37,939 nucleotides of DNA from Flavobacteriales bacterium (GTDB taxonomy: Bacteria; Bacteroidota; Bacteroidia; NORP154): the NCBI GenBank assembly GCA_012965955.1, contig DTRK01000078.1:1-37939 (forward strand), read 5' to 3'. The position numbers and the translations under genes are program-made. Numbering within the stretch: position 1 is the stretch's first letter; every line of letters begins with the position of its first letter. The notes under the pieces are model-generated. The model was not told the origin of the DNA and made no database searches. It saw nothing but the letters and a program-made list of their open reading frames with translations. Shown here piece by piece: positions 5,161 to 30,225 of the stretch.

Positions 5161-8100
5161 ATGAAGTCACTAATCTCTATGTTAATATCCGTATTACTGG
5201 CAGTAGTATTTCTTACCTCGATGTGCCAAACTACTCATGCCGCCTGTAGCGCTGGCGAAGTCGAGGTTACAATAGAGGTAGTTACCGATACCTATGGCTA
5301 TGAATGTTATTGGGAGCTGGTGCCTAGCGCCAGTCCTTGTGGTACAGGAACCATATTTACAGGTGGTAACCTTACTGTTGGATGCTCAGGTGGCTGCCTC
5401 CAGGCGCAAGATCCGAGTGGCTATGCGAACAACTCGACAATAACAGAAGGCCCGTGGTGCTTGCCCTTGGCCAACAACTATGATATTGTGTCGGTTGACG
5501 ATTGGGGAGATGGAGGAACCACATTTAACGTATACATGGATGGGGCACTTACAAACACCTTCACTGCAAGCGCTGTGTGTACCGAGACTTTTACGTTTAC
5601 AACTACATCAGCGCCCAACAACAACCTTACGATGAGCGCTGGCTTTTATAATACTTCTTCAGATTCAGCGTATATCAGATATTATACGCAAATTCCTGAA
5701 CAACAAGCAGCGGCAACTACGCTAATGTTTGGTGGCCATGTTAAGAATAATGGAGTTTTAGTACAGAACAACACGAACTTCTTTACGGACATTACGGGGC
5801 CGGTTACCTACTCCGGAAGTAGCACAGCAATCACATTGAATCCAGGCGTACAGGCTTCATTTGATATTTCAACGCCCTTTACGCCTTCTTTACAGGGTAC
5901 GTACGGTGTTACTTTCAGCACTACTTCTTCAGCTACCGACGATGTCCCGTCGGACAATTCCCTTACAGAATCCTTCATTGTGGGTGATACCACTTATGCA
6001 CGGGACAATGGCGTATCAGCTGCAACATACTGGTATGGAGCTGCAACGCTATACCATGCAGGACACAATTTTGAAGTATATGCCGCCGATACGGTGAGCT
6101 CAATATCATTGTACTTGTCATCTTTTTATTCTGCAGGCAACCCAATAAATTATCATCTTTGGGATGGTGGTCGGACCACTATCCTTGCAACAGCTACACA
6201 CATTGTTGCTGCGGGAGAACCAGACTCATGGGTGACATTGGGATTGGACAGCGGACCCTATGGCGTCGCGCCGGGTACCTACTTCGTGGGCATTGAAACC
6301 TTTACTGATACTGCTACTTATGAAGTTGACGGGACAACCAGCCCTCCAGGGGTATGCTGGGGAGACATTAATAAAGATGGTACCTGGACAGCTAATGACC
6401 AGACAATATTGTTAAGGGTCAACCTCAACTCAGCAGCTGGAGGTGGATGTAATATTTCTGCTACTACCAGTACAAGCAATGTATCTTGTAATGGAGGGTC
6501 GGATGGTTCTGCGACAGCTACTGTTACGGGTGGTACAGCTCCGTTTAACTATGTATGGACTCCAGGTGGAGGAACAACTGCCACAATCAATGGGTTGTCT
6601 GCGGGAACGTATTCGGTAGTTATAACTGATGCTGCAGCATGTGTTACTACAGGATCTGCAACCATTACAGAACCTGGCGTTTTTACTGCAACTACTACAG
6701 GTAGCAACCCATCCTTCTGTGGTGGCTCAGACGGAACCGCAATGGCAATACCAACAGGCGGGGTAAGCCCTTTTTCCTATTCCTGGGACAGCAGCACCGG
6801 GAACCAAACTACCCAGATAGCCATTGGGCTAGCGGCGGGAAATTACTCTGTCACAATTACTGACGGTAATGGCTGCACAGCCCTTGGTAGTACAGCTCTA
6901 TCAGACCCGGGTGGAACAACGCTCACAAGTTCAAGCACCGATCCAACCGCATGTGGACTAACTGATGGCACCGCAACAGTGACAGCAACAGGAGGGACTG
7001 CTCCTTATACATATGCCTGGGATGATCCAGCAAATCAAACCAATCAAATAGCAACTGGACTGAGTGGCGGTACTTTCTCCGTAACCGTTACAGATGCTAA
7101 TGGATGTACAGCAATGACGTCAGTTACACTTACTTCAGCTTCTGGACCAACTGTAAACACCACCGGAACGAATCCAACGTCATGTGGATCAACGGACGGC
7201 ACAGCAACTGCTACAGTCACAGGAGGATCTACACCGTACACCTATGCCTGGAGCTCTGGTGGAAATACATTGATAGAAACCAACTTAGGAGCAGGTACTT
7301 ACACCGTTACCGTTACCGATGCTGATGGGTGCGCCGCCACTTCCTCAACTACATTGACCTCCTCAGGAGCACCGACATTAACAACTACAGCGACCGATGC
7401 GAGTTGTTCATCACCAACTGGTACGGCTTCGGTATTTGCAACAGGAGGAACGACTCCGTACTCTTATTTATGGAGTAATGGGCAAACCTCTTCAATGGCC
7501 ACGGGACTAAGTCCGGGCTCTCATTCTGTGACGGTAACAGACAATGTGGGTTGTGCATCGATTGCTTCGGCCACGGTTGGTTCATCAGGCATAGGGCCAA
7601 CGCTGACTTTTATCACATCTAATCTGAATTGCTTTGATGATGGGAGTGGATCTGCAGCGGTTGCTGCATCAGGAGCAACATCACCATACACTTACTACTG
7701 GAGTACGGGTGCAACAACTTCGATTATCAGTGGTATGGATGCTGGGATCTACGATGTGACAGTTAGCGACAACCTGGGTTGTCAAACGATACAGTCAATT
7801 ACGCTAACGGAGCCAGCCGAAATAGTATCGATTTCTACGGTTTCGAACGCAAATTGTGGTGCTTCGGACGGTGTTGCTTCTGTGTTTTCAACAGGTGGAG
7901 TGTCACCATACAACTATCAATGGGACGCAGCCGCTGGAAATCAAACCACCGCAACAGCGACTGGTTTGAGCGCAGGCACTTATGACGTCACGACCACGGA
8001 TGCCAATGGTTGCCCAATGCCTTCACAAGTAAATGTGAGCAATATTGGAGCTCCTTCCTTAACGTTAGTGGGAGCTGATGCAGTATGTTTTAACACAAAT

Positions 8101-8778
8101 ACAGGTTCTGTTACCTCTGTAGCAAGTGGGGGAAGTGCTCCTTATACCTACTCTTGGAATACCGGGTCGAATGGAGCTAATCTATCCAATGTATCAGCTG
8201 GTACCTATACCTTGACATTGACGGATACTTCTGGATGTATCGCAATACAATCGGCAATCGTTGATGAGCCCCCTGTATTCTACGGAACCACTTCATATCT
8301 GAATGTCTCTTCTTCTTCGAGTTGCGATGGACAAGCTACTATCAGCCCATTCGGTGGAACAGGCGCTTATACCTATAGCTGGGATGATCCTGGAACACAG
8401 AGCAATGCAACCGCAATTGGGCTGTGCCTTGGCACTTATAATGTAACAGTAACAGATGCCAATGGGTGTAATTTTACCTTACCTGTCTACGTGGATTCTA
8501 TTGCCATGGGTGTAACCTCACTTGAGGCTCATCAAACAATTGAAGTGTATCCAAACCCAGCAGTAGGTACGGTAAATATTTCCTGGGATATGCCTTCCGA
8601 AGAGTTGGTAATTATACGCCTATTTGGTTTGGATGGACAAGAAATTCATAGTGCGACAATCACCGATAATGCAGCCTATGTCCATAAAGTAGAGCTTACA
8701 GGTTATGCAAAGGGACTCTATTTTATTCAGGTGGCTACCTCCAACAATTTGATCACCCATAAGTTGGTTCTCCATTAA
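5161..8778 (+). CDS. T9SS type-A-sorted surface protein with nine SprB repeats
   Basis: Signal peptide; N-terminal TDTYGYECYW/DDWGDG domain; repeated C..xDGTATxTxTGGTxPYTYxW...GxYxVTVTDANGC units; CTD VYPNPAVG...AKGLYFIQV...THKLVLH. Confidence 0.92.
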   Translation: MKSLISMLISVLLAVVFLTSMCQTTHAACSAGEVEVTIEVVTDTYGYECYWELVPSASPCGTGTIFTGGNLTVGCSGGCLQAQDPSGYANNSTITEGPWCLPLANNYDIVSVDDWGDGGTTFNVYMDGALTNTFTASAVCTETFTFTTTSAPNNNLTMSAGFYNTSSDSAYIRYYTQIPEQQAAATTLMFGGHVKNNGVLVQNNTNFFTDITGPVTYSGSSTAITLNPGVQASFDISTPFTPSLQGTYGVTFSTTSSATDDVPSDNSLTESFIVGDTTYARDNGVSAATYWYGAATLYHAGHNFEVYAADTVSSISLYLSSFYSAGNPINYHLWDGGRTTILATATHIVAAGEPDSWVTLGLDSGPYGVAPGTYFVGIETFTDTATYEVDGTTSPPGVCWGDINKDGTWTANDQTILLRVNLNSAAGGGCNISATTSTSNVSCNGGSDGSATATVTGGTAPFNYVWTPGGGTTATINGLSAGTYSVVITDAAACVTTGSATITEPGVFTATTTGSNPSFCGGSDGTAMAIPTGGVSPFSYSWDSSTGNQTTQIAIGLAAGNYSVTITDGNGCTALGSTALSDPGGTTLTSSSTDPTACGLTDGTATVTATGGTAPYTYAWDDPANQTNQIATGLSGGTFSVTVTDANGCTAMTSVTLTSASGPTVNTTGTNPTSCGSTDGTATATVTGGSTPYTYAWSSGGNTLIETNLGAGTYTVTVTDADGCAATSSTTLTSSGAPTLTTTATDASCSSPTGTASVFATGGTTPYSYLWSNGQTSSMATGLSPGSHSVTVTDNVGCASIASATVGSSGIGPTLTFITSNLNCFDDGSGSAAVAASGATSPYTYYWSTGATTSIISGMDAGIYDVTVSDNLGCQTIQSITLTEPAEIVSISTVSNANCGASDGVASVFSTGGVSPYNYQWDAAAGNQTTATATGLSAGTYDVTTTDANGCPMPSQVNVSNIGAPSLTLVGADAVCFNTNTGSVTSVASGGSAPYTYSWNTGSNGANLSNVSAGTYTLTLTDTSGCIAIQSAIVDEPPVFYGTTSYLNVSSSSSCDGQATISPFGGTGAYTYSWDDPGTQSNATAIGLCLGTYNVTVTDANGCNFTLPVYVDSIAMGVTSLEAHQTIEVYPNPAVGTVNISWDMPSEELVIIRLFGLDGQEIHSATITDNAAYVHKVELTGYAKGLYFIQVATSNNLITHKLVLH
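6448..8490 (+). repeat. Nine tandem SprB-type protein repeats (~73-77 aa each); boundaries approximate
   Basis: Units start NVSCNGGSDG, NPSFCGGSDG, DPTACGLTDG, NPTSCGSTDG, DASCSSPTG, NLNCFDDGSG, NANCGASDG, DAVCFNTNTG, NVSSSSSCDG; diverged at DNA level. Confidence 0.85.
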
Positions 8779-9056: not shown

Positions 9057-12000
9057 TTGAGATCACCATTATCAAAGAAGTCTTCATTTCTCACTTTTCT
9101 GTTGTACCTGATTTACCAGGTGTGTCTTGCCCAGCAGGTCAGCTTTCAAGTATCTTATGATGTTGGATTGCTCGATTTGTTTGCCAATGTAAAGCAGACC
9201 AATGACAACGGTTATATCATTGGTGGATCGCCCGTGAGCTTTTTGCCTCTTGGCGGATTAATCAAAACAGATACCGCGGGAGCAGTAGTATGGGCCAAAA
9301 CATACGATGAAGGATTCCTTGGACCTGCCTACTCTATCTCCGATGTTCAACAAACCATCGATGGAGGATACATTGCAACAGGCCAAATCGGTAATGGTGT
9401 AATGCTGATGAAAACGAATGCCACCGGTAGTGTTACATTTACAAAAAGGTTCGGTGGTAGCGACACGGATTACGGATCGGTCGTCAAGCAAACTTCTGAT
9501 GGAGGCTATATCATTGCAGGATCTAGCTTTAGCTTTTCCTCAAAGGACTCCGCCAATTTCTATCTGTTAAAAACCAATAGCTCTGGCACTTTGCTATGGG
9601 ATAAGGTGTATCAAATAAGCACCATCGACGATGAGAATGGCATAGCCCTGGAAGAGCTGGTGGATGGCTATCTCGTTGCTGGCTCAACCCCGCAGGTGTT
9701 TGGATCAGATACTACACGAGATGCGGTGTTAATCAAGACTAACCTCAACGGTGACGTCACCTGGGCCAGGACCTATGGATCTGACACGTATTCGGAAGAA
9801 ATATATGATGTCAAACTCATCAGTACCAACGAGATATTGATTAGCGGATATACCACTGAACCCTCAACTGGCTCAGTGAGTGATGTTTTCATAATGAAAA
9901 CGGATACCACTGGATCGGTAACGTATAGCACAAGTTATAATATCGGGTTTGAAGATTTGCCCTACTCAGTGCAAGAAACCAGCGACGGGGGCTTTGCGGC
10001 GATGGGCTGGACCATCACCAATCTATTCCCTTTGACTATAAAGACATTCTTGTTAAAGACATCCAATACCGGTACCGTTCAAATCTCTATGCAATATGGA
10101 GCGGGCATTGGATCTATATTTGGCAAGGGCGAACAAACCAGTGATGGAGGTTATGTGCTGGGCAGCATGCAGGGAAATACATCCTGGGATTTTCATCTGT
10201 ATAAAACTGACAATACCGGATCAACGGTATGTAATCAAACCAGTACCAGTGCATCCCAAAATGCCTATGTTCCACCGGCAACCACGCCTGGTGTGAGTAC
10301 TTTTTCCGGAGGTTCTACGAGTAATAGATCCGCAAGTGCCAATAACGTGACACCTACAACCACGGTACTTTGTATTAACGCTCCCTGTTCACCTGCTCCT
10401 GACCCTACGCTAACCATAACTGATGCCAATGTTTGTTTATCGGAAACAGGTGTTATCTATACCACGCAGAGTGGGTTTGACTCCTATACCTGGACCGTAA
10501 CCGGAGGTACTATTGCTTCTGGACAGGGTACCAATAGTATTACCGTTGATTGGGGAACTGGACCTAGTGGAACTGTTGATCTATTAATTGATAGCTCAGG
10601 CTGTGCTGGTAATCTAATCACAGAGAACGTAAGTATTGCTGATCCCGCCCCAACTCTCTCAGCAACTGACACTGATGTTTGCGAAGGCGAAACGAGCGTC
10701 ACATACACTACCCAAACTGGCTTTACCACCTATACATGGATAGTTGCCGGCGGAACTATTGCAAGTGGATCCGGGACTAACAGCATAACCGTGGATTGGG
10801 GGTCACCAGGTGCTGGAACAGTGAATTTAACTGTGGTGGATGCGTTTGGGTGTACCGGATCACTTTCAGCCACTGAGAACGTCACGATAAACGCAAGTCC
10901 TACTCCGACGCTGACTGTATCTGATACTGTCGTTTGTGAGGGACAAATTGGTGTTACCTATACTACTCAATCAGGTTTTTCAACATATACCTGGACGATA
11001 GGCGGAGGGACAATTGCAAGTGGTTCGGGAACCAACAGTATTACCGTGGATTGGGGTACCGGCGGAGGTGGTACTGTCGACCTAACAGTGATTGACGCAA
11101 ACGGATGTTCCGGATCACTTTCAGCCACTCAGTCAATCTTAATTAATCCCAGCCCTAACCCCACTCTAATAATCTTCGATACCATTGCATGTGAAAACCA
11201 GACAGGTGTGGTCTTTACGACCCAATCATTTTATACAGCATATATCTGGTCTATTACAGGAGGTGCTGTCAGTTCTGGTGTAGGAACGGATAGCGTCAAT
11301 GCTGATTGGTTTTCACCAGGAGGTGGAACCATTTTTTTAACGGTGGTAGATACCAATGGATGTTCAGGATCTCTTTCGTCCCCTCAATCAATTGTTATCA
11401 GCGCTAACCCTGCACCAACGCTCTCCGTTTCTGACACGGCAGTTTGTGAAAATGAGACTGGTCTAATCTATACAACCCAAGCTGGCTACACGACCTATAC
11501 CTGGACCGTTAGTGGAGGATCAATTGTCAGTGGAGCTGGCACCAATAGTATTACCGTCAACTGGGGAACTTCCGGAGGCGGAACAGTAGATTTAACGGTT
11601 GACTCAAATGGTTGTTCGGGGTCATTGTCAGCCACAGAAACCGTAAACATTTATGCTGCGCCAACAGCTAATATTACACCTTCCGACAGTACTAATTTTT
11701 GTACGGGTGATAGTGTTCAGCTCATGTCTGATACAGCTACAACTTATTTTTGGTTGCTCAATGGTGGTTCAACAGGTTTAACATCACCGGGAATTTACGT
11801 CACTGTCGCAGGAGACTATCAGGTGATAGTAACCAATACAGCAGGCTGTCCCGACACTTCCTCAATCACAACAGTCATTGAAAACCCCTCTCCAATTGCC
11901 AATATTATAGTACTAGGCTCAACAACATTCTGCTCAGACGATAGCGTAATATTACAGGCTGACACCGCCTTAACTTATTTGTGGTTTCTCAACGGTATCA

Positions 12001-13880
12001 GCACTGGACAAACCACCCAAACCATCACAGTTGCTGGAGCTGGAGATTATCAGGTTGCAATCTCAAATGCATTTTGCCAGGACACTTCAGCTATAGTAAC
12101 CGTGGCCGTGAATGCTATCCCAACAATTGATACCTCAGCAACAATCATTGATTCCAGTAATTGCGGAAACAGCGATGGGTCAATTACGGTAATCGTGGCC
12201 AATGGCACTGGACCGTTCACGTATGAATGGACCAATAGCTCCAGTACAGTTGTGGGTGGAGACTCTGCTAAACTGGTGAACATGCCTGCGGATTCCTATA
12301 CGCTCGTAATTACAGACTCACTTGGATGTACAGCTTCAAGCACATTCACCATCAACGATATTGGCGCACCTCCAACGCCAGTCGCCTCTGCTGATGCAAG
12401 TTATTGCCAGGGCGATCCAATTGCTGATTTGACAGCTGCAGGATCAGGAGGAACGTTAATCTGGTATTCGGACGCACTGCTCACCGACTCCATTGGCACG
12501 GGATCACCATTCTCTTCAGGCGCCATAGTATCAGATACCTTTTACGTAGCAGAGACCATTGCCGGCTGTGAAGGTCTGGCAGATATGGTAATCATTACCA
12601 TTAATGCAACTCCAGCTCAACCTGTGGCAGGAGCTGACAGCACCTATTGCCAGGGAGACGTCATAGCTGATCTTACCGTTACTGGTGGTGGCGGAATTTT
12701 CACCTGGTATTCTGATCCAGCGCTAACGACTTCAATTGGAACAGGCAGCCCATTCTCATCAGGAATAACTGTTACTGATACGATCTTTGTGACCGAGGAA
12801 GTGGGAGGATGTGAGAGCATTCCAGACACGGTAATTATCACTTTCATCAACGCACCTATTGGTCTGACGACTGGAGGAGATTCCAGCTATTGCCAGGGAG
12901 ATGCAGTTGCCGATCTTACAGCAACGGGATCAGGTGGAATAATCACATGGTACTCCAACAGTGGGCTAACAGACACGGCTTTCACCGGCTCACCTTTTGC
13001 ATCAGGTGCCTTTACTGATACCACCTTTTATGTGACCGAAACCTCAAATGGATGTGCAAGTGCAACTGACTCAGTAACCCTGACCTTCACACCCCAGCCA
13101 ACGGTTGTTCTCACATCTAGTGCTGATACAATTTGTCCTGGAGGGGATGTGACACTAACAGCTAACGGAGCAGATTCATATCTATGGAGCACGGGTGATA
13201 CTGCTGTATCTATAACTGTCAGTCCGATTATAAATACTGTCTACACCGTAATTGGAATGACAATGGCTGGATGCACGAGCGCAGCGGATACAACAACGGT
13301 AAGCATAAGCGCTGGAGGAGTAGTTGCCGGATTTACGGCCAATCCAACCACTGGAAGCATTCCTTTGGACGTTGCGTTCACGGATACTAGCATCGGAGCA
13401 GTATCATGGGCTTGGGATTTCTCTTATGACAGCATATTCTTCAATACTGAATCAACCGACCAGAATCCAAATTACACATACACTACCGGAGGAAATTTTC
13501 AAATAATCCTGGTAGCCTCTGACGCCAATGGTTGTTCTGATACGGCATCGATGACCCTGAACTTGGATATAACCGAGGAAGTCTTTATACCAAACTTATT
13601 CACCCCGAATGGAGATAACAGTAATGATGTTCTTTATGTGCGGGGAAATGGAATCGACGATCTGTTGCTGATAATCTATGACCGCTGGGGCGAGAAGGTA
13701 TATGAGGGCGCATACTCTCAGGCATGGGCCTTGGAAGACACATATCCCACGGGTATAGGTTGGGATGGTACATTCAATGATCAGCCGATGAACCCAGCTG
13801 TGTTTGTATATGTTCTAACAGGGACATTTATAAGTGGTGAAGCGATCGATCAGAAGGGAAACATAACATTAGTTAGATGA
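9057..13880 (+). CDS. Large adhesin-like protein with T9SS type-B (gliding motility-associated, CHU_C) CTD: N-terminal beta-propeller, PKD-like/Ig-like stalk, one SprB repeat, PKD
   Basis: TTG start; signal peptide ending CLA|QQ; QTxDGGYIxxG propeller blades; five PKD-like units; three YCQGDxxADLT Ig units; PKD FTANPTTG..PLDVAFTD..WAWDF; CTD FIPNLFTPNGD..IYDRWGEKVY..WDGT..GNITLVR. Confidence 0.92.
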   Translation: MRSPLSKKSSFLTFLLYLIYQVCLAQQVSFQVSYDVGLLDLFANVKQTNDNGYIIGGSPVSFLPLGGLIKTDTAGAVVWAKTYDEGFLGPAYSISDVQQTIDGGYIATGQIGNGVMLMKTNATGSVTFTKRFGGSDTDYGSVVKQTSDGGYIIAGSSFSFSSKDSANFYLLKTNSSGTLLWDKVYQISTIDDENGIALEELVDGYLVAGSTPQVFGSDTTRDAVLIKTNLNGDVTWARTYGSDTYSEEIYDVKLISTNEILISGYTTEPSTGSVSDVFIMKTDTTGSVTYSTSYNIGFEDLPYSVQETSDGGFAAMGWTITNLFPLTIKTFLLKTSNTGTVQISMQYGAGIGSIFGKGEQTSDGGYVLGSMQGNTSWDFHLYKTDNTGSTVCNQTSTSASQNAYVPPATTPGVSTFSGGSTSNRSASANNVTPTTTVLCINAPCSPAPDPTLTITDANVCLSETGVIYTTQSGFDSYTWTVTGGTIASGQGTNSITVDWGTGPSGTVDLLIDSSGCAGNLITENVSIADPAPTLSATDTDVCEGETSVTYTTQTGFTTYTWIVAGGTIASGSGTNSITVDWGSPGAGTVNLTVVDAFGCTGSLSATENVTINASPTPTLTVSDTVVCEGQIGVTYTTQSGFSTYTWTIGGGTIASGSGTNSITVDWGTGGGGTVDLTVIDANGCSGSLSATQSILINPSPNPTLIIFDTIACENQTGVVFTTQSFYTAYIWSITGGAVSSGVGTDSVNADWFSPGGGTIFLTVVDTNGCSGSLSSPQSIVISANPAPTLSVSDTAVCENETGLIYTTQAGYTTYTWTVSGGSIVSGAGTNSITVNWGTSGGGTVDLTVDSNGCSGSLSATETVNIYAAPTANITPSDSTNFCTGDSVQLMSDTATTYFWLLNGGSTGLTSPGIYVTVAGDYQVIVTNTAGCPDTSSITTVIENPSPIANIIVLGSTTFCSDDSVILQADTALTYLWFLNGISTGQTTQTITVAGAGDYQVAISNAFCQDTSAIVTVAVNAIPTIDTSATIIDSSNCGNSDGSITVIVANGTGPFTYEWTNSSSTVVGGDSAKLVNMPADSYTLVITDSLGCTASSTFTINDIGAPPTPVASADASYCQGDPIADLTAAGSGGTLIWYSDALLTDSIGTGSPFSSGAIVSDTFYVAETIAGCEGLADMVIITINATPAQPVAGADSTYCQGDVIADLTVTGGGGIFTWYSDPALTTSIGTGSPFSSGITVTDTIFVTEEVGGCESIPDTVIITFINAPIGLTTGGDSSYCQGDAVADLTATGSGGIITWYSNSGLTDTAFTGSPFASGAFTDTTFYVTETSNGCASATDSVTLTFTPQPTVVLTSSADTICPGGDVTLTANGADSYLWSTGDTAVSITVSPIINTVYTVIGMTMAGCTSAADTTTVSISAGGVVAGFTANPTTGSIPLDVAFTDTSIGAVSWAWDFSYDSIFFNTESTDQNPNYTYTTGGNFQIILVASDANGCSDTASMTLNLDITEEVFIPNLFTPNGDNSNDVLYVRGNGIDDLLLIIYDRWGEKVYEGAYSQAWALEDTYPTGIGWDGTFNDQPMNPAVFVYVLTGTFISGEAIDQKGNITLVR
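10400..11660 (+). repeat. Five tandem PKD-like repeats (~84 aa); boundaries approximate
   Basis: Consensus PTLxxxDTxVCExxTGVxYTTQxGxxxYTWxxxGGTIxSGxGTNSITVDWG seen five times. Confidence 0.85.
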
Positions 13881-22732: not shown

Positions 22733-24253
22733 ATGAAAATAATGTGGAGCCTGCTAATTTGCCTTGTTATCGCCCTACCCTCTTTCTCCACGGGAGATGG
22801 AGATGAAAAGCTACGCCTGGCAATTCTCTACTTTGATAATTCAGGCGATAGCGAGAAACTGCAAATGCTTCGCAAGGGAATGGCGGATATGCTCATTACC
22901 GATTTATCCAAGGTTAAGAGTCTTGATATTGTGGAGCGTGCCAGATTGGAGGAGATTATGAAGGAGCAAGAAATGTCCAACTCAAAAAGCTTTGACAACA
23001 ATACTGCTGTTTCGATGGGTAAACTGCTGGGAGCAGAGACCATTCTCACCGGATCGTTCTTTGAAATGATGGGTACACTGCGTGTAGACGCACGCTTTAT
23101 AGATGTTGAAACCGGCAAAATATTGAAATCAGACGGTGTACAAGGCTTGGTTAGCGACTTCTTTACTCTGGAGAAGGACCTGGTTGATAAGATCATTGTG
23201 AATTTGGAATTAAAACTTACCGATGATGAGAAAGCATACCTTAAACTAAATCGGGAAGGCGAGCAATTAAGTTATGAGGATGCACTGACATTCTCTGAGG
23301 GCTTGGACCTCATGGATTTGGGCAAGAAAGATAAAGCCAGGGCCAAATTTGAAGCAGTATTGACAAAGCATCCAAAATTTGAGCCCGCCAATAATGCTAT
23401 CGCTAAATTAAATGAAGCTCCTGTCGTTGTTGCGAGCTCTGAAGTCAAACCAGCAAAGGTAATGAGGGGTACTGGAGACCCGCTGAAAGGACTCAATGTA
23501 TCCAAATCCCTATCTAATAATGATATTGGGAAATACTATGCACTCATCATAGGCATTGATCAGTATAGCGGAGAATGGACCAAGCTAAACAACGCAGTGA
23601 ATGACGCAACTACTATCGAAAAAACGTTGAAGGCCAATTATCGATTTGACGAGTTCCAAACATTATATAACTCTGAAGCAACGCGATCTGCAATTATGAA
23701 AAAACTAGAGTGGTTGGTGAACAATGTAAAAGAGGAAGACAATGTATTCATCTATTATTCAGGCCACGGAGAATTCAAAAAGTCGATGAATAAAGGATAT
23801 TGGGTACCTCAGGATTCGAGGACTAAGTCGGTGTCGGAATATATTTCCAACAGTGATATACAAACGTTTTTAGGTGGCATTAAATCCAGGCACACACTCC
23901 TGGTATCTGACGCCTGTTTTAGTGGTGACATTTTCCGTGGCTCTACGGTATCTGTTCCGTTTTCTGATACTGAGAAGTACTATGAAAAGGCATACAGTCT
24001 GCGCTCCAGACATGCGATTACCTCAGGCGGCATAGAGCCTGTAATGGACGGAGGCAAAGACAATCATTCCGTATTTGCCTACTACTTGCTGAAAGTATTG
24101 AAGAGCAATGACAAGAAATACCTGGATGCCTCTCAGCTATATGAGGGCTTAAAAATACCTGTGATCAACAACTCGGAACAGTCGCCGAACTTCAGCCCCA
24201 TTAAGAACACCGGAGACGAAGGCGGACAGTTTATCTTTATCCGTAAGACTTGA
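22733..24253 (+). CDS. Exported CsgG/FlgO-like domain + TPR + caspase-like peptidase C14
   Basis: Signal peptide; LAILYFDN..ADMLITDL..IVER..GKLLGAETILTGSF..RVDARFIDVETGKI; TPR-like helices; YALIIGIDQY, NAVNDA, YYSGHG (His345), SDACFSG (Cys395), HSVFAYYLL. Confidence 0.9.
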   Translation: MKIMWSLLICLVIALPSFSTGDGDEKLRLAILYFDNSGDSEKLQMLRKGMADMLITDLSKVKSLDIVERARLEEIMKEQEMSNSKSFDNNTAVSMGKLLGAETILTGSFFEMMGTLRVDARFIDVETGKILKSDGVQGLVSDFFTLEKDLVDKIIVNLELKLTDDEKAYLKLNREGEQLSYEDALTFSEGLDLMDLGKKDKARAKFEAVLTKHPKFEPANNAIAKLNEAPVVVASSEVKPAKVMRGTGDPLKGLNVSKSLSNNDIGKYYALIIGIDQYSGEWTKLNNAVNDATTIEKTLKANYRFDEFQTLYNSEATRSAIMKKLEWLVNNVKEEDNVFIYYSGHGEFKKSMNKGYWVPQDSRTKSVSEYISNSDIQTFLGGIKSRHTLLVSDACFSGDIFRGSTVSVPFSDTEKYYEKAYSLRSRHAITSGGIEPVMDGGKDNHSVFAYYLLKVLKSNDKKYLDASQLYEGLKIPVINNSEQSPNFSPIKNTGDEGGQFIFIRKT

Positions 24254-26346
24254 GGGTGCTTTACCACAACATTGTCAGATCCAGCCTCAAACTCCTACTG
24301 GCACTGAGCCTTATCGCTCCACATTCGGCCTGGGCGGAGAAGACCATTGCCATTTCTTATTTCGACAATACTTCAGGAGATGTCAGGTTCAACCCTCTCT
24401 CTAAGGGAATTGCAGATATGCTGATCACCGATCTCTCTAAAATCCCGGAAGTGAATATTGTTGAAAGAGAAAAATTGGAGAAACTGCTACAAGAAATTGA
24501 GCTGGGTAGTTCCAAGTATTTCGATCAGAAGACAGCTCAAAAATTGGGTAAAGGATTAGGCGCGGAAGCCATACTCACCGGAGCCTTTTTGGTTCTGGAT
24601 GAACAGCTACGCATCGACGCGCGTTTGGTGGATGTTGCTTCGGGAAATATCCTGACCGCCGAGTCCGTGTCTGGCAGCAAAGATGATTTTTTCGCCTTGC
24701 ATGCAAAGCTTGTTCAGCTACTGGTCAAGGAGCTTAAAATGGATTACAAAGCAGGTGCCGGAGCCAAAGCAAAGAATGTCACGCTGGATGCGGTGGTTGA
24801 CTACTCTACCGCCATCGACTATTACGACAAAGGACTATCCGCTGATGCGAGTGCCATATTGGCCAGTACCGTTAAAAATAATCCCGGATTTACCTTTGCA
24901 AAGAACAGGCTTGAAGCCATAAAACAGTGGCTGGTAGATATTGAAGCTGAACGGGAGCGCCTAATCCAGGAGGAGACAAAAAAACTACTGTCCAATCTGG
25001 ACACTGAAAATGCCCAGGTAGGACAACAGATAAACCAGATATGGACGTCCATGATGACAGCTCAAGCATATAGCAAGATCATCGCTATCAACAAACAGCT
25101 GGCACAGAAGAGCCTGTCTGACGATTTCAGAATATATGGAGAAGCGTCGCCAATTACATTTGGTGAGATGCGATACTTTTACGATGCCTTTTCTTTTTAC
25201 ATGTTGAAGGACTACAACAACACCCTCCTCGCTGGCGAAGCCTTTATCAAGCGGTATCCTATTAGCATGTACTTCGCGGGAGTCAAGGCCAATATGGATC
25301 AGTCCATTGCGGAACTTGAAGCTCGGGAGAAAGGCAAAGCGGTAATCAATGAGCGCCTGCAATATGCCGAATTTGAAACATATGTCAATAAATTTGACTG
25401 GATGAATTCACGCTGGCGACTTGATTATATGAGTAGGGAAATGTACGAAAATTACAAGGCAATCTTCATCAAACGCATCTTCAACTTCGGCGACAAATTG
25501 CTGATTGCATATATAAATGCAGGGGGTGAAGAAGCAGATGAACTACTTGAGTTCAAGGGTGTGGCAATGCATTTTCTGGATGAAGATTTGATGCGGAAGA
25601 TCAGTGAAAAGGCCATTGCAATTTACAGCGAGACGAGCATGGAGGAAAAAGGCTATCAGATTGAAGAATCGATAGATCGCGATTTGGCGGAGATCCAGAA
25701 AACCAACGCAACCGTTGAGGAAGCACGCTCCTCAATGAAGAGTGCCCAGCCTGAAGAACTGCTGCGAATGGTAAAGCACTTTCGCAATTTGTCGAAGGGC
25801 CTGGATTGGCAGCTGTTGCTGGACATCAGCACGAAGTTTATCAAGTTACCATTTGATGAAAAGAATGCTAATTACCTCCGAACGGCTTGGGAAATGCAGG
25901 TCGTAGCTCTCGCCCATCTCCGCAGGCTTGACGATGCAAAAAAGCAGCTTGAGGCCTATAAGGTGGTCAAGGAACTCAATGATCCAGACCCTAAAAAACA
26001 CACTAAGTCCTATCGGGATTTGCGTTCCACGCTCAGCGAGGCGAAGAAATCCATTGCTTCGGCAGATCAAAATGTGCTGCCCCTGGCCATCTACCGCTCC
26101 AGGGCGGAGATATACCGTTACAGCCATCAATTCGTGGATGAAGCTTACACGAGAAGGGCGATGTTAGACAAGTTAGAGCTTGATGAAGATCAGGGGAGCC
26201 AACAATTGTTCATGCTATTAACAGCTTACAGTAACCTGGGGTATTTCGATAAGGCCAGGGCGGTGGCCAAGGAACTCAAGACTAAGTATCCTACAGGGAG
26301 TTACACGGATAGTGTGGATTCAATGTTGAAATATATGCCTCAATAA
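24250..26346 (+). CDS. Exported CsgG/FlgO-like domain + long TPR/alpha-solenoid protein
   Basis: TTG start overlaps the upstream TGA; signal peptide ending SAWA|E; N-domain paralogous to the upstream gene; TPR-like FIKRYPISMY and YSNLGYFDKARAVAKELKTKYPTGSY. Confidence 0.85.
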   Translation: MRVLYHNIVRSSLKLLLALSLIAPHSAWAEKTIAISYFDNTSGDVRFNPLSKGIADMLITDLSKIPEVNIVEREKLEKLLQEIELGSSKYFDQKTAQKLGKGLGAEAILTGAFLVLDEQLRIDARLVDVASGNILTAESVSGSKDDFFALHAKLVQLLVKELKMDYKAGAGAKAKNVTLDAVVDYSTAIDYYDKGLSADASAILASTVKNNPGFTFAKNRLEAIKQWLVDIEAERERLIQEETKKLLSNLDTENAQVGQQINQIWTSMMTAQAYSKIIAINKQLAQKSLSDDFRIYGEASPITFGEMRYFYDAFSFYMLKDYNNTLLAGEAFIKRYPISMYFAGVKANMDQSIAELEAREKGKAVINERLQYAEFETYVNKFDWMNSRWRLDYMSREMYENYKAIFIKRIFNFGDKLLIAYINAGGEEADELLEFKGVAMHFLDEDLMRKISEKAIAIYSETSMEEKGYQIEESIDRDLAEIQKTNATVEEARSSMKSAQPEELLRMVKHFRNLSKGLDWQLLLDISTKFIKLPFDEKNANYLRTAWEMQVVALAHLRRLDDAKKQLEAYKVVKELNDPDPKKHTKSYRDLRSTLSEAKKSIASADQNVLPLAIYRSRAEIYRYSHQFVDEAYTRRAMLDKLELDEDQGSQQLFMLLTAYSNLGYFDKARAVAKELKTKYPTGSYTDSVDSMLKYMPQ

Positions 26347-26397: not shown

Positions 26398-26429
26398 GCC
26401 CCTGTACAGTGGAACAGGGGCTTACTTTT
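26398..26429 (+). terminator. Intrinsic terminator-like hairpin between convergent operons
   Basis: GCCCCTGT (26398-26405) / ACAGGGGC (26414-26421), perfect 8-bp stem, followed by TTACTTTT. Confidence 0.6.
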
Positions 26430-27921
26430 CAACCGTCAGCATATACTCCGCTACCGCCATCCTCGTCTCCTCTGACAGGTAGTTCTGAGGTGGCATCTCA
26501 GGATAGTTCTCCCGCCTGCGGATCGGGTTGGTAATATAATCCACAATGCCCTGGGGATTGTTGTTGTATATCGCCTGGAGGTCTCTGGTTGGAGGGCCAA
26601 TCATCCTGATACCATATGCATGGCAACCTGAACATACTCCATAAAAGGTGAGTTTCCCCTTCTCCTCGGCTGATATATCTCTAGGAGGCACCGGTTCGGC
26701 CAGCATATAAGACTTCACGGCAATGGATGTCCGCACCTGACATTGGCCGTAATCTTCCAGACCAAAGGTGCGGTACTTGTTTTTGTCCAGGATACAACCG
26801 CCACTACCTCCTCCAAAGTGGATGATATCTGGTCCTTTGGATTCCATTTGCGTAGCCATCAATGCTTTCAACTGCCCCCCGGGATCATTACCGTTGTTGC
26901 TCATAAAGTTATCGAGGATTACCAATCGGTCGGGATTAGGCTCCGATTCCGGATCTGTGGCCACATTGGCAACCAGGGTCAGATCTGTGATCGTGATGCC
27001 TGCATTATTATTTCCTGTAATGATATTTCCTTCCAAAGTCACATCGTCTGCAGCCATTATCAATATTCCGGTTCCCTGTGGAATTCCTGATACAATAGAT
27101 CCGGGTGCAGCGAAATTCTCGAGGTTGTTATCCACCACAAAGTTGTTTCGAACAATAATATCAAAGCAAGTTTTGATCGGCAGCCCAGGAGTGATAAAGA
27201 CCAGAAGCCCTCCCGTGTTGTTGTGGGTATAATTGTTCTCCACCAGGCAGTGTCTGGAATTTTCAATCTCAATTCCCGCAACGCTTTCATAGGTCTCATT
27301 GTGTAACACATCAATGTTGTCACACATGCCCACGTAAATTGCAGCATCTTCAATTCCCGACAGCACATTGTGTTCTACCAGACCGTTCTTTCCAAACTCA
27401 GGGAATATCCCATACACCCCGGCATCTACCACCCAGTTATTGCGAATGACGAAGTTATTTCCCGCCTGGCCCATTATTCCATTGCCCTTGTAATTGATGA
27501 TCTTAAAATTCTCTATTATGATGCCATTACCAGAGTAGAGAAACCCGTCGTTCAACTCTTTCCCCCCATCCAATGTGGGCCATTCCCCCTCAATGATGAT
27601 TCCCTGAAAGCTAATGTCATCCTTGTCGATGTACACGGTTTCCCTGTAGCTACCAGGATAAACCCTGATTAAGTCTCCAGGGTTCGCTTTTTTCACGGCA
27701 TCCTGAATCTTATCCCCATTGCGGACCTCTATGATCTCACCTTTAAATCCTGCCAGTGCAGTATCCGCTCCTGCCAGGCCAGGGGTGTAACCACCTTGAG
27801 CTTCGTACAACTTAACTGGAGTGAGTGCAGTGGATGTCGGTTTGCTCTTAAAAAGAAACTTTCCAGCTAGTATTCCGACAGCCAACAAGACCAGCCATAT
27901 CATCAGCATTTTCCATTTCAT
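26422..27921 (-). CDS. Parallel beta-helix protein (TIGR03805-like) with C-terminal class I cytochrome c
   Basis: N-terminal anchor; IQDAVKKANPGDLIRVYPGSY, YGIFPE, DAAIYVG, GIEIENS, NTGGLLVF..PGLP; heme motif CSGCH (26620-26634) with downstream MPPQ Met. Confidence 0.87.
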   Translation of the reverse strand: MKWKMLMIWLVLLAVGILAGKFLFKSKPTSTALTPVKLYEAQGGYTPGLAGADTALAGFKGEIIEVRNGDKIQDAVKKANPGDLIRVYPGSYRETVYIDKDDISFQGIIIEGEWPTLDGGKELNDGFLYSGNGIIIENFKIINYKGNGIMGQAGNNFVIRNNWVVDAGVYGIFPEFGKNGLVEHNVLSGIEDAAIYVGMCDNIDVLHNETYESVAGIEIENSRHCLVENNYTHNNTGGLLVFITPGLPIKTCFDIIVRNNFVVDNNLENFAAPGSIVSGIPQGTGILIMAADDVTLEGNIITGNNNAGITITDLTLVANVATDPESEPNPDRLVILDNFMSNNGNDPGGQLKALMATQMESKGPDIIHFGGGSGGCILDKNKYRTFGLEDYGQCQVRTSIAVKSYMLAEPVPPRDISAEEKGKLTFYGVCSGCHAYGIRMIGPPTRDLQAIYNNNPQGIVDYITNPIRRRENYPEMPPQNYLSEETRMAVAEYMLTVEK

Positions 27922-27933
27922 GGGTAGTGTGTT

Positions 27934-29109
27934 CTATTTATTTTCATTTCTTACCAATCCTGGCTTTAATCCAGAAGGCAATCTTTGTGGGATCTGGGGC
28001 ATAAACCCCTCATCCGTTAGCGTCTCCAGGAAATCTACCAGGCGATCCAACTCTCGATCGCTGAGATCAGGTTCCCAGATGTGCCAGTGCAATTTCAAAT
28101 CCTCACCTTCAGGTACAGCATGGCCCCTGCCCTTGGTGTAAAAGGCTACTGTTTCCTTCAGCGTTTCAAAGGTGCCAGAATGCATATAAGGAGCGGTACG
28201 GGCCACATTCCTGAGGCTAGGCACCTTAAATCCCGCACGAAACTTAGGATCTGCATATGTCTTTTGTGCGCCTTGGTCCAGTGGGAGACCATCTGGCTCG
28301 GGTGTACCCAGCACCGCCACTTGCTGATTGGTAAACAACGGCGGCGTATGACACTCTGCACAGCGTGCAACAAAGGAGCGGAAGATGTTCAACCCCTCAA
28401 TCTCATTTTCGTTGAGCGCCTCATGATATCCATGTGCATAGTGGTCGTAGCGGCTATTGAGTGAAACCAGTGACGACTCAAATGCCGTGATGGCTGTGTG
28501 TACATCTTGTACGCGAATATCTTTTTGCGCTGACGGGAATGCGTCAGCAAACAAGCGACGATACGCTGGAATATTATTCAATGTAGCAGCCAGTTTCGCC
28601 GGAGTGTTACCCATCTCCTCCGCCGAATAAAGCGGTCCTTGCATCTGCTCCTCAAGCGTAGAAGCTCTGGCGTCCCAAAACAACGACTGTAAAAATGCTA
28701 CGTTCCAAAGGCTCGGTGCACCTCTTTGCACTATTGCCCCATCCATTCCAACTGCCCTGCCTTTGCCATCGCTAAAGCCATAATTGGGATCGTGGCAGCT
28801 ACTGCAAGCCAGGGATCCGTCAACAGATAAGACCGGGTCAAAAAACAAGTAACGACCTAGGTCAATTTGTTGGGGACTGAACCCATCACGTATTGCAGGA
28901 AGTCCTGTTTTCAACCCGCCCACTCCACTGCCCCGCAAGGATTCGTACTGCTGGTACATATTTCTGCACTTGCAGGCATTATCGTCGGTAAGTTCAAAAC
29001 CGGGAGGGCAATGCGACGCGAGTATTATCTGTTCGCTATCGCTTTGCACAGTTGGCGAAATAGCAATAATTGTAATAGCCAGGATGGTTATCACTCGAGC
29101 GGTTCGCAT
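27934..29109 (-). CDS. Diheme cytochrome c peroxidase/MauG superfamily protein
   Basis: Signal peptide; LGRYLFFDPVLS, CSSCH (28792-28806), FWDARASTLEEQ..P..EMG, CAECH (28348-28362), FKVPSLRNVARTAPYMHSG. Confidence 0.92.
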   Translation of the reverse strand: MRTARVITILAITIIAISPTVQSDSEQIILASHCPPGFELTDDNACKCRNMYQQYESLRGSGVGGLKTGLPAIRDGFSPQQIDLGRYLFFDPVLSVDGSLACSSCHDPNYGFSDGKGRAVGMDGAIVQRGAPSLWNVAFLQSLFWDARASTLEEQMQGPLYSAEEMGNTPAKLAATLNNIPAYRRLFADAFPSAQKDIRVQDVHTAITAFESSLVSLNSRYDHYAHGYHEALNENEIEGLNIFRSFVARCAECHTPPLFTNQQVAVLGTPEPDGLPLDQGAQKTYADPKFRAGFKVPSLRNVARTAPYMHSGTFETLKETVAFYTKGRGHAVPEGEDLKLHWHIWEPDLSDRELDRLVDFLETLTDEGFMPQIPQRLPSGLKPGLVRNENK

Positions 29110-29226: not shown

Positions 29227-30225
29227 TTATGGATGCTGCCAGCACCTGCCAGAAGCGTTTTTCGTCTGACGTTTGCAGCGGGTGCCGGATAGTGTAGTGG
29301 CGCTGCAGCGCATGGCTGTAGCGTTCTTGCCCTGCTTGACTGATCTGGGAACCTGACTCTGATGAGCATGGCAATATCCATTCTGGTTCTTTGTGCGGTT
29401 GTGGCAGCGTTCTCCTGTAGCAGCAGCCCTTCCACGACATTGTTCAGAAGTAGCCGCTTTATGATTATTGGAGAAATTCAACGGCTTGAACTGCCACCTG
29501 CTGAGATCATTGCGGGATTCCAGCAATACCTCCAGATCATCAGGAAGTTCGGGGAAAAAATCTATCCCCGTTACGCTTTCTACATAATCAATCGTCACAT
29601 TATAAGTACTGAGCTTCCGGGCCCCTCTTTCATTGGGCAAAACAAATGCTATCGCCTTGACTTCCGGAGCGGTATAATCCAATATTATCTTGTAGTATCT
29701 AGGTGGTACAGTAACTTTATTGCCCCCGATATTATCAAGTGGCTCCTCCTTGAGTATTGGGCCGGTTACCACATACAAATGCTCGTTCCGCACTGCCCAT
29801 TGCCGTACCTGCTCTTCCAAACTCTTCCAAATACCGCGATTAAAGCCTGGTACTTGTGGACTCATATTGCTCATAAAAAAACTTTCAGACATGGCTTTTG
29901 CACTGAATTTCATATCTCCGGCAGGAGCCAAATGGCCACGATCATATCCAGAACCTTTATAATCTGGCAGCTCTGCTGAGCCAGTCGTTACCTGAGGATC
30001 AATGCGAAAGTCGTTGGATCGTCCCTTTGTACCTCCCGTGGCTTTCCTGGTAAGCTCGTACGCTACCCACTCTGCCTGCTCATGCTCTTCAGCATAGGAT
30101 AGAGAATAAAAGCTGTGCTCCACTATCTGCCCAGTTGTAGAGGTAGGCAGATAGTTAAAGGTCTGGGCCCATCCCCATAAGGGTATTGTCAGCGTCAGCA
30201 ATAATGTATGGATACGTCGCTTCAT
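29227..30225 (-). CDS. Secreted DNA/RNA non-specific endonuclease (NucA-type) with two C-terminal CCCH fingers
   Basis: Signal peptide ending GWA|Q; AEWVAYEL, GYDRGHLAPA, SNMSPQ..FNRGIW..LE, VTGP, TGIDFF; tail C-x9-C-x10-C-x2-H and C-x8-C-x10-C-x2-H. Confidence 0.93.
   Translation of the reverse strand: MKRRIHTLLLTLTIPLWGWAQTFNYLPTSTTGQIVEHSFYSLSYAEEHEQAEWVAYELTRKATGGTKGRSNDFRIDPQVTTGSAELPDYKGSGYDRGHLAPAGDMKFSAKAMSESFFMSNMSPQVPGFNRGIWKSLEEQVRQWAVRNEHLYVVTGPILKEEPLDNIGGNKVTVPPRYYKIILDYTAPEVKAIAFVLPNERGARKLSTYNVTIDYVESVTGIDFFPELPDDLEVLLESRNDLSRWQFKPLNFSNNHKAATSEQCRGRAAATGERCHNRTKNQNGYCHAHQSQVPRSVKQGKNATAMRCSATTLSGTRCKRQTKNASGRCWQHP

Follow-up and report, generated by a model that had tools for sequence, protein, structure and literature searches.

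Overlapping genes for two exported paralogous proteins, one with a C-terminal caspase domain: a candidate periplasmic sensor-protease in a Flavobacteriales genome

What might a bacterial caspase do outside the cytoplasm, and why is it encoded next to a partner that shares its N-terminal domain? The question is raised by two overlapping genes, here called p1 and p2, on contig DTRK01000078.1 of a Flavobacteriales bacterium (assembly GCA_012965955.1), which we analysed as a whole stretch of 37,939 nucleotides (the window). The p1 protein has an N-terminal module of about 200 residues and a C-terminal caspase domain, and the p2 protein has the same kind of module followed by a long helical domain (Table 1). 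To our knowledge, those bacterial caspase-like proteases that have been characterised work in the cytoplasm, gasdermin activation and type III CRISPR cascades being examples. We propose, as a reading that is plausible but falls short of probable, that p1 and p2 form a two-protein periplasmic sensor-protease, and that this is a derived form, confined to the periplasm and with a caspase as its output, of a larger and hitherto undescribed family of envelope sensors whose effectors are exchangeable.

The two proteins are paralogous over their modules: residues 29–228 of p1 and 33–226 of p2 are 38% identical (76/200 residues, E 3e-36), and no other copies are found in the whole assembly (3.1 Mb, 316 contigs, 91.6% complete). 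At the junction of the genes, ACTTGAGGG, the TTG start codon of p2 (24250–24252) lies over the TGA stop codon of p1 (24251–24253) to give a TTGA overlap, and the operon consists of these two genes only. Signal peptides and transmembrane helices of all proteins discussed here were judged by eye from sequence. Both proteins begin with signal-peptide-like segments in which no lipobox is seen; the N-termini of p1 relatives are hydrophobic too, p2 relatives begin with short signal peptides (e.g. MKKGFLFLIAIVFALHSYA/KT), and the AlphaFold2 (AF2) models of p1 and p2 have N-terminal helices at residues 2–14 and 2–26 respectively. Lipid attachment of p1 through Cys10, its only N-terminal cysteine, was considered and rejected, as the residue has no lipobox context and is not conserved in relatives. 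An earlier note on this DNA, made from the sequence alone, had described genes coupled by a TTGA overlap, signal peptides on both products, a terminator after the pair, and a paralogous N-terminal module in each protein. All four are borne out, by the coordinates of the open reading frames (ORFs) and the junction sequence, by inspection together with the hydrophobic N-termini of relatives, by a hairpin with a T-rich tail, and by the module alignment.

The C-terminal part of p1 belongs to Peptidase C14, as profile, catalytic dyad and fold all agree. The PF00656 match spans positions 3–223 of the 233 in the profile, and the dyad is formed by His345 (codon CAC at 23765–23767) in an SGHG context and Cys395 (codon TGT at 23915–23917) in a DAC context; both are invariant in 13/13 aligned full-length p1 relatives (59–86% identity), so that the C14 protease with an intact dyad reported in the earlier note is upheld. 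Among PDB sequences the protease matches Yca1 (E 4e-11), and Foldseek recovers Yca1 (4F6O), GSU0716 (3BIJ), AtMC9 and MALT1 (E 1e-7 to 1e-6, TMt 0.4–0.55). By analogy with its closest relatives (Yca1), p1 would be expected to cleave after Arg or Lys. Seven residues of the RGxGDPLKGLNV segment ahead of the domain (R245, G246, D249, P250, K252, L254 and N255) are invariant in the 13 p1 sequences, and we speculate that the protein may use this segment as a lid or cleave itself there. In p2, residues from about 180 to 698 are almost wholly helical in a confident AF2 model (predicted local distance difference test, pLDDT, mean 85.5), in agreement with the approximately 470 amino acids of helical repeats described earlier. 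The helical domain scores 20.9 bits against TPR_14 (cut-off 23.5), its matches to BamD, YfgM, SprE and YbgF (Z 10.7–12.1) lie under the value of about 13 that is the tool's noise level for helical repeats, and the ESM Atlas returns only generic TPR or unnamed clusters (0.91–0.93). The top Foldseek match of p2, the Campylobacter motor scaffold 9hmf_K, was rejected as mere helical-repeat likeness (TM 0.13, root-mean-square deviation [rmsd] 44.8).

Table 1. Features of the p1–p2 locus, in positions of the window (aa, amino acids; HMM, hidden Markov model; SH-aLRT, Shimodaira–Hasegawa-like approximate likelihood ratio test).
Feature	Positions	Strand	Basis or remark
p1, exported module-caspase protein, 506 aa	22733..24253	+	ORF, ATG start; Pfam Peptidase_C14 and partial CsgG
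p1 signal-peptide-like N-terminus, aa 1–19	22733..22789	+	cleavage MKIMWSLLICLVIALPSFS/TG, by eye
p1 module, aa 27–228	22811..23416	+	TolB-N/LpoB-like alpha/beta domain and TPR hairpin, p1-type clade; HMM envelope; 52–56% identity to modules of DUF4145-type partners
Linker motif RGTGDPLKGLNV, aa 245–256, start of caspase cassette	23465..23500	+	low-confidence part of model
Peptidase_C14 domain (metacaspase-like), aa 269–487	23537..24193	+	PF00656 E 1e-20, 74.9 bits against cut-off 21.4
p2, exported module-helical protein, 698 aa	24250..26346	+	ORF, TTG start; AF2 model pLDDT 85.5
p2 signal-peptide-like N-terminus, aa 1–29	24250..24336	+	cleavage ...LLLALSLIAPHSAWA/EK (...HSAWA/EK), by eye
p2 module, aa 31–226	24340..24927	+	p2-type clade (9 rows, SH-aLRT 97)
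p2 C-terminal all-helical TPR-like domain, aa 233–698	24946..26343	+	no Pfam family above cut-off
Terminator-like hairpin and T-rich tail	26398..26431	.	hairpin 26398–26421, 8 pairs (6 G-C), then TTACTTTT

The module common to p1 and p2 corresponds to one half of the CsgG fold, the half that resembles TolB-N and LpoB, joined to a TPR hairpin; it is not a pore. Pfam CsgG matches residues 26–108 of p1 (E 2e-14) and 31–119 of p2 (E 5e-15), which cover only positions 9–97 and 10–104 respectively of the 210 in the profile, with weaker matches to FlgO (p2, E 1.8e-5), LpoB and TolB_N. When the p2 model was compared with known structures using VIA-align, the module matched the TolB N-terminal domain (Z 12.2, rmsd 2.8, 130 aligned), 8z5n_5, a chain of the Vibrio LPHT ring that we take to be FlgT (Z 11.6, rmsd 2.7, 125 aligned), the periplasmic sensor domain of CadC (3LY7; Z 11.0, rmsd 4.1, 182 aligned, over p2 residues 30–233 and including the helical hairpin), LpoB (Z 10.2, rmsd 2.9, 110 aligned) and PelC (Z 9.8, rmsd 2.6, 106 aligned). 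Foldseek agrees with these matches, and for the module part of the p1 model it finds LpoB, GNA1162, TolB and CadC; pre-pore CsgG is also among the fold matches of the module. The hairpin follows the alpha/beta domain in the model at the place where CsgG has barrel hairpins, and it is attached in every one of 34 aligned modules from many phyla, which behave as a fixed unit with the motifs (I/V)A(V/I)LYF(D/E)N, LSKG(L/I)ADMLITDLS, VER..L, GK.LGA, R(I/V)DAR and V.TG, the last followed by the TPR-like hairpin motif D.G....A ... P.F..A. It is because of the half-coverage of the profile, the fold matches and the fixed hairpin that we assign the module to half of the CsgG fold; of the CsgG/FlgO identity first given to it, the family matches hold, for half of a CsgG domain and not for a CsgG barrel. 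The module profile matches 103,620 representative proteins at E <= 0.001, 37,425 at <= 1e-10 and 3,270 at <= 1e-30; single chains have up to seven matched stretches in tandem, and fusions to WD40, PorV-OmpA, FG-GAP, PEGA and FGE-sulfatase domains occur.

The pairing of the two genes is conserved well beyond this genome. A scan with a p2 alignment, using one genome per species, gave 79 loci, of which 32 encode a full p2 relative, all of them in metagenome-assembled genomes (MAGs) of Bacteroidota. A p1-type module gene lies directly upstream in 29/32, with a gap of -4 to +11 bases in 27 of the 29, and the remaining three loci are cut by a contig end, one of them (L012) still showing a caspase C-terminus at the cut. 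The p1 module is 48–56% identical to the modules of the upstream genes (79% in locus L001) and the p2 module 54–83% identical, where whole, to those of the downstream genes, and since each matches its own counterpart the two genes are old and distinct paralogs. Loci of the window's own kind, with a caspase, are rare, with only L001 and L012 among the 32. In 28/29 cases the upstream partner is instead a protein of about 435 aa with an N-terminal domain of about 170 aa, one transmembrane helix and the module, and all six such partners scanned (6/6) match DUF4145; the L003 protein has two further N-terminal matches, one to a type I restriction endonuclease model and one to PADLOC PDC-M16A, in each case to the N-terminus of the model. 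The gene-neighbourhood check that the earlier note had called for thus came out in favour of the pair, and its view of the caspase as the defining part of the system has to be given up.

Trees were made by quick search with SH-aLRT support and midpoint rooting. The tree of 39 p2 proteins places those that have a known or inferred caspase association in one clade of 14 rows (SH-aLRT 100), in which no row has a DUF4145-type partner and six rows have a partner that is not known. Six further caspase-type pairs in metagenomes are suggested by matching the p1 and p2 hit lists, not by sequence check, and four pairs of the DUF4145 type or of similar length (430–441 aa) were matched likewise. The p2 helical domain itself has a narrow distribution, being present at E <= 1e-10 in 1/401 sampled genomes of the phylum, the window's own, and in 3/8 genomes of its order, all in the window's genus. 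A contig end binned as Sericytochromatia (L057:2025-2237, +) encodes a p2-type module 73% identical to that of the window over 71 residues, a likeness beyond what is expected across phyla and one that suggests gene transfer or mis-binning.

The module is much more common, occurring in 115/401 of the same genomes, and of 28 other genomes that contain a match at E <= 1e-39, 25 have another one no more than 8 kb away on that contig (hand count). One genome has six tandem module genes about 2.1 kb apart (G133:C69:18952-30296, +; open frames of 710–739 aa), a local expansion of a weaker-scoring module class. At another locus (L115:653-8000, +) the gene for a Ser/Thr protein kinase with PEGA domains precedes a pair of neighbouring module genes (375 and 440 aa) and the gene for an open-ended 921-aa Ig-repeat protein, which ties a module pair to a further type of signalling.

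Within one clade of modules the output domain is exchanged. A Pfam scan of the best 150 module representatives found HEPN_STY4199 (P0333, P0346) and TIR_2 (P0335, P0351), each with a transmembrane helix and the module, as well as DUF4145 proteins, proteins with a transmembrane helix only, and one in which a caspase precedes the module (P0348). When 52 modules were placed in a tree, a single clade of 25 rows (SH-aLRT 96) was seen to hold six output types: DUF4145 (10), C-terminal caspase (6), HEPN_STY4199 (3), transmembrane-only (3), TIR (2) and N-terminal caspase (1). The p2 modules (SH-aLRT 97), TPR-module proteins (100) and Glucodextran_B-caspase proteins (97) form separate clades. The HEPN_STY4199 proteins have a canonical RNxxxH motif (IRRIRNTIAHN, IRLIRNSIAHN) and a transmembrane helix ahead of the module, and this domain is present with the module in 82 of the 120 relatives listed for the TIR type (hand count). 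HEPN and TIR domains lie behind a transmembrane helix, presumably on the cytoplasmic side, and each caspase is placed on the same side of the membrane as its module. A further protein (P0377) consists of a signal peptide, a caspase and the module, with no transmembrane helix between caspase and module; its caspase is of another subfamily, and the fusion is an independent one. One module clade carrying caspase, HEPN or TIR fits the earlier idea of a platform for an output domain.

Other arrangements of module and output were also seen. A second operon type, with several ORFs without a family, encodes a CHASE2 protein, a TPR-module protein and a module-Glucodextran_B-caspase protein; it was found in an Ignavibacteria MAG (L063:1331-10383, +), where a protein with papain-like C1 and DUF4384 domains is added, and in genome G213 (L112:914-9479, -), where a Laminin_G_3 protein is added. 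A 1589-aa protein (L044:5863-10629, +) has an N-terminal module and, close to the other end, an FGE-sulfatase domain, a type of domain described in part of PMC3501461 as often found with bacterial caspases. A possible HEPN_STY4199-type pair (P0416/P0184) was set aside, as it depends on a single coincidence between hit lists that could be due to chance.

These observations are brought together in the following model. The constant part would be the TolB-N/LpoB-like domain with its TPR hairpin, usually encoded by two adjacent paralogous genes, and the variable part would be the output domain on the p1-type protein, which in relatives would reside in the cytoplasm behind a transmembrane helix (DUF4145-like HEPN, HEPN_STY4199 or TIR). 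In the lineage of the window the cytoplasmic domain and transmembrane helix would have been replaced by a plain signal peptide, and a metacaspase-like cassette added at the C-terminus; the PP2C phosphatase gene found downstream in relatives is absent. We suppose that the helical domain of p2 and the two modules bind a periplasmic cue or an envelope structure, that binding clusters p1, and that proximity then activates the caspase to cleave, after Arg or Lys, a target in the periplasm or the envelope; the system would probably serve to watch for attack on the envelope or damage to it. Dependence on dimerisation or oligomerisation is common to TIR, HEPN and caspase domains. Since p2 is kept in systems that have no caspase, it is more likely a partner for the module than a dedicated caspase substrate.

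Several points weigh against a periplasmic sensor-protease of this kind. Co-assembly of p1 with p2 and activation by clustering are putative steps of the model, and prediction of a complex between the p1 module (26–235) and mature p2 (29–698) scored 0.00 in both runs, which speaks neither for nor against binding. The AF2 model of p1 is of moderate quality only (pLDDT 67.6, with loops 397–436 and 475–498 below 50). The DUF4145 assignment of the common partner is weak (E 4e-6 to 3e-3; 2/6 above the Pfam cut-off), and 8/8 aligned partners of this type have TYGNY(A/G)AHAQ with no Arg four to six residues before the His, where the catalytic motif of HEPN RNases is Rx4-6H. A TPR-SpoIIE (PP2C) phosphatase gene follows p2 in 26/27 non-caspase loci with enough downstream sequence and in 0/3 caspase-type loci. 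The DUF4145 type may be ancestral and the caspase type derived, a polarity drawn from the midpoint root and the distribution only. At L080, the sole HEPN_STY4199 locus recovered, a neighbouring gene transcribed divergently encodes a module protein of 690 aa whose C-terminal domain is of another kind, and the 4.4 kb contig ends 172 bases past the HEPN gene. No system in PADLOC-DB 2.0 matches, with p1 giving a partial 'caspase' domain match, p2 none, and the L003 cassette matches at domain level only. Finally, the cassette lies among housekeeping-looking genes (named by eye from translations), and the GC content of the pair (0.42–0.47) is unremarkable against 0.38–0.51 over the window.

A bolder form of the proposal is that module and paralogous partner are the sensor of new trans-envelope immune or conflict systems that fire an interchangeable effector by clustering, the caspase being their extracytoplasmic arm. 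The periplasmic trigger would be phage adsorption or injection, or damage to the wall or outer membrane, and the effector would act beyond the membrane, as an HEPN RNase or TIR NADase, or, at this locus, within the periplasm, as a caspase. HEPN and TIR domains are typical of conflict systems. We hold this form to be possible but on the unlikely side.

An explanation that we likewise consider unlikely, yet one to be taken seriously, is that the pair serves homeostatic envelope signalling and not conflict, the two modules acting as a co-component receptor that in most lineages passes a signal through a non-catalytic HEPN-like domain to the PP2C phosphatase; here the place of that output would have been taken by controlled proteolysis, in the periplasm, of some regulator or envelope protein. 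The three-gene cassette with the TPR-SpoIIE gene is present in 26/32 loci, and the phosphatase resembles SiaA (E 7e-41, below cut-off). Together, the YGNY(A/G)AH motif without Arg, which makes the HEPN motif degenerate, and the PP2C gene give the commonest Bacteroidota form the look of ordinary signalling. The CadC-like fold of the module points the same way, as do the LytS-like kinase and housekeeping genes seen (by eye) in the flanks of some loci; overlapping co-component genes are a known design, according to part of bioRxiv 10.1101/2022.04.08.487670. This explanation has to contend with the canonical-motif HEPN_STY4199 and TIR domains, both of conflict type, on the same module clade, and with the very patchy distribution of the p2 family. 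In the window's own genome no match to the DUF4145-like N-terminal part was found (tblastn, E <= 1e-3), and SpoIIE-type phosphatases have matches on at least 15 contigs, so many that no orthologous phosphatase could be singled out.

We also investigated the other caspases of this genome, which has a total of four Peptidase_C14 ORFs, every one with a signal-peptide-like N-terminus; an extracytoplasmic caspase, taken at first as unusual, is hence the rule here. All four share a C-terminal unit composed of RG(S/T)GDPLKGLNV, the caspase domain and GDEGGQF(I/V)FI(K/R)(K/R/T), and the other three cassettes are 66–73% identical to that of p1 over 260–261 residues, behind differing N-terminal parts. 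The three further exported caspases (C86:3872-4534, +; C31:2512-3171, -; C103:32290-32916, -; RGSGDPLKGLNV ... GDEGGQFVFI) differ in their N-terminal parts, of which, judged by eye, one is repeat-rich, one is WD40-like plus Ig-like and one is almost absent. The same cassette is found at 65–74% identity on WD40, LRR, CARDB, PEGA and ankyrin proteins in the protein collection, and, to judge from these sequences, the caspase is a mobile exported cassette. Since exported prokaryotic caspase homologs have been predicted in silico before, in the part of PMC3501461 that also notes a Bacteroidetes genome with 28 caspase homologs, export by itself is not the novelty here.

Such mobility would fit an explanation in which p1 and p2 form no complex, the module being a general envelope-docking domain as in LpoB, TolB, FlgT and PelC, and their adjacency reflecting duplication and shared localisation. 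p1 would be one of four exported caspases with targeting domains of their own, and p2 a separate scaffold at the same site. One cassette on different N-terminal parts in four caspases, its spread over unrelated repeat proteins, and the wide occurrence and many fusions of the module all favour this. The order and tight coupling of the paralogs are nevertheless kept over deep divergence, down to p2 identities of about 27–40%, paired module genes recur in other operon types, and tandem modules are found within single chains; with these in mind we judge independent docking to be rather improbable. A periplasmic ring comparable to CsgG, PelC or the flagellar H-ring, with which the pair would secrete or assemble some surface polymer or appendage and in which the caspase would be the maturation protease, is most improbable, for although partial CsgG and FlgO matches, the fold matches to PelC, 8z5n_5 and pre-pore CsgG, and large Ig-repeat surface proteins in some module operons speak for it, there is only half a CsgG profile with a TPR hairpin in place of barrel hairpins, there is no lipobox, there is no curli, Pel or flagellar gene among the five flanking genes scanned, and cytoplasmic HEPN or TIR outputs are left unexplained.

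The surroundings of the pair in the window are as follows. The five flanking genes scanned encode an ABC-F ATPase, an EamA transporter, a NosD-like cytochrome c fusion, a cytochrome c peroxidase and a nuclease, with no gasdermin gene among them. The terminator-like hairpin starts 52 bases past p2 and is flanked by convergent genes, a position from which it may serve both neighbours. Beyond it lies a gene (26422-27921, -) whose product joins a NosD-like right-handed beta-helix to a cytochrome c domain, adjoined by a di-haem cytochrome c peroxidase/MauG-like gene (27934-29109, -); the 499-aa NosD-like neighbour also follows the pair in L001. A further gene (29227-30225, -) encodes a signal-peptide-bearing DNA/RNA non-specific endonuclease (Endonuclease_NS, E 5e-56) with Cys/His-rich C-terminal DUF5763 repeats, and two very large ORFs of 1205 and 1607 aa (5161-8778 and 9057-13880, both +) lie upstream of the pair. 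The stretch, or part of it, is represented in 19 sequencing-run rows from 13 studies, from marine or hydrothermal-vent metagenomes, with no RNA run listed.

Little is understood of how bacteria detect attack on the envelope and link it to effectors of suicide or signalling. The locus leads to a large family (37,425 representatives at a module E <= 1e-10), one periplasmic module clade of which has HEPN, TIR or caspase domains as its outputs. Should the module be a sensor, it would offer an entry to envelope-level sensing and to the activation of effectors by clustering across the membrane, as well as to the function of the many exported caspases of Bacteroidota. Under homeostatic signalling too, there would be a new co-component receptor family with a PP2C branch.

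Comparison with known systems shows several partial likenesses. Among caspase-like proteases, p1 resembles the metacaspases and orthocaspases (C14B; Yca1, GSU0716, Arabidopsis MC9) in C14 profile, SGHG/DAC dyad and fold, but differs from them in being exported, in having the caspase at the extreme C-terminus behind RGxGDPLKGLNV, in its fusion to a TolB-N-like module, and in being paired with a paralogous partner. It differs from the gasdermin-activating caspase-like proteases in its signal peptide and in flanks without a gasdermin gene, and from the EACC1-associated caspases (NCBIfam NF047832, caspase_w_EACC1) in scoring 62.3 bits where the cut-off is 140. Multi-domain prokaryotic caspase homologs with WD40, TPR, FGE-sulfatase or CHASE2 domains, some predicted to be extracellular, are described in part of PMC3501461, the main text of which (its supplements being outside our scope) has no mention of curli or CsgG.

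The modules resemble the N-domain group of CsgG, LpoB, FlgO and TolB in their Pfam matches and in structure (TolB, Z 12.2; LpoB, Z 10.2), but unlike CsgG, LpoB and FlgO, which have a lipobox, they show no lipoprotein signal, and they have a TPR hairpin and no barrel hairpins. The full profile, lipobox and curli context (over the five flanking genes scanned) that mark a CsgG curli channel are all absent. CadC has, like the p2 module, an alpha/beta subdomain followed by helices in the periplasm, a likeness of fold at 18% identity in which homology is not established. The p1-type relatives are, like CadC, VtrA/VtrC and ToxR/ToxS, transmembrane proteins with a cytoplasmic output, and the overlap with the gene for a periplasmic partner is shared by VtrA/VtrC, as described in part of bioRxiv 10.1101/2022.04.08.487670. 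In contrast to CadC and the co-component receptors, the outputs here are HEPN, TIR or caspase and not DNA-binding domains, and the partner protein, instead of being a lipocalin, is a paralog that bears a helical domain.

Conflict systems with a constant component and an exchangeable effector, as presented in parts of PMC7159879 and PMC8195603, are alike in joining one conserved part to TIR, HEPN or caspase, but the system here has no NTPase, vWA or EACC component and its constant part is periplasmic. No TolB- or periplasm-based version of such systems was found in the literature passages searched, and searches of the open full-text literature gave no description of a p1/p2-type system, nor did the passages searched of PMC3501461, PMC5756287, PMC7159879 and PMC8195603 (supplements and subscription journals being outside our scope). 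The closest logic is therefore twofold, that of a co-component receptor and that of a conflict system with a constant component and variable effector, and the parts used here differ from both.

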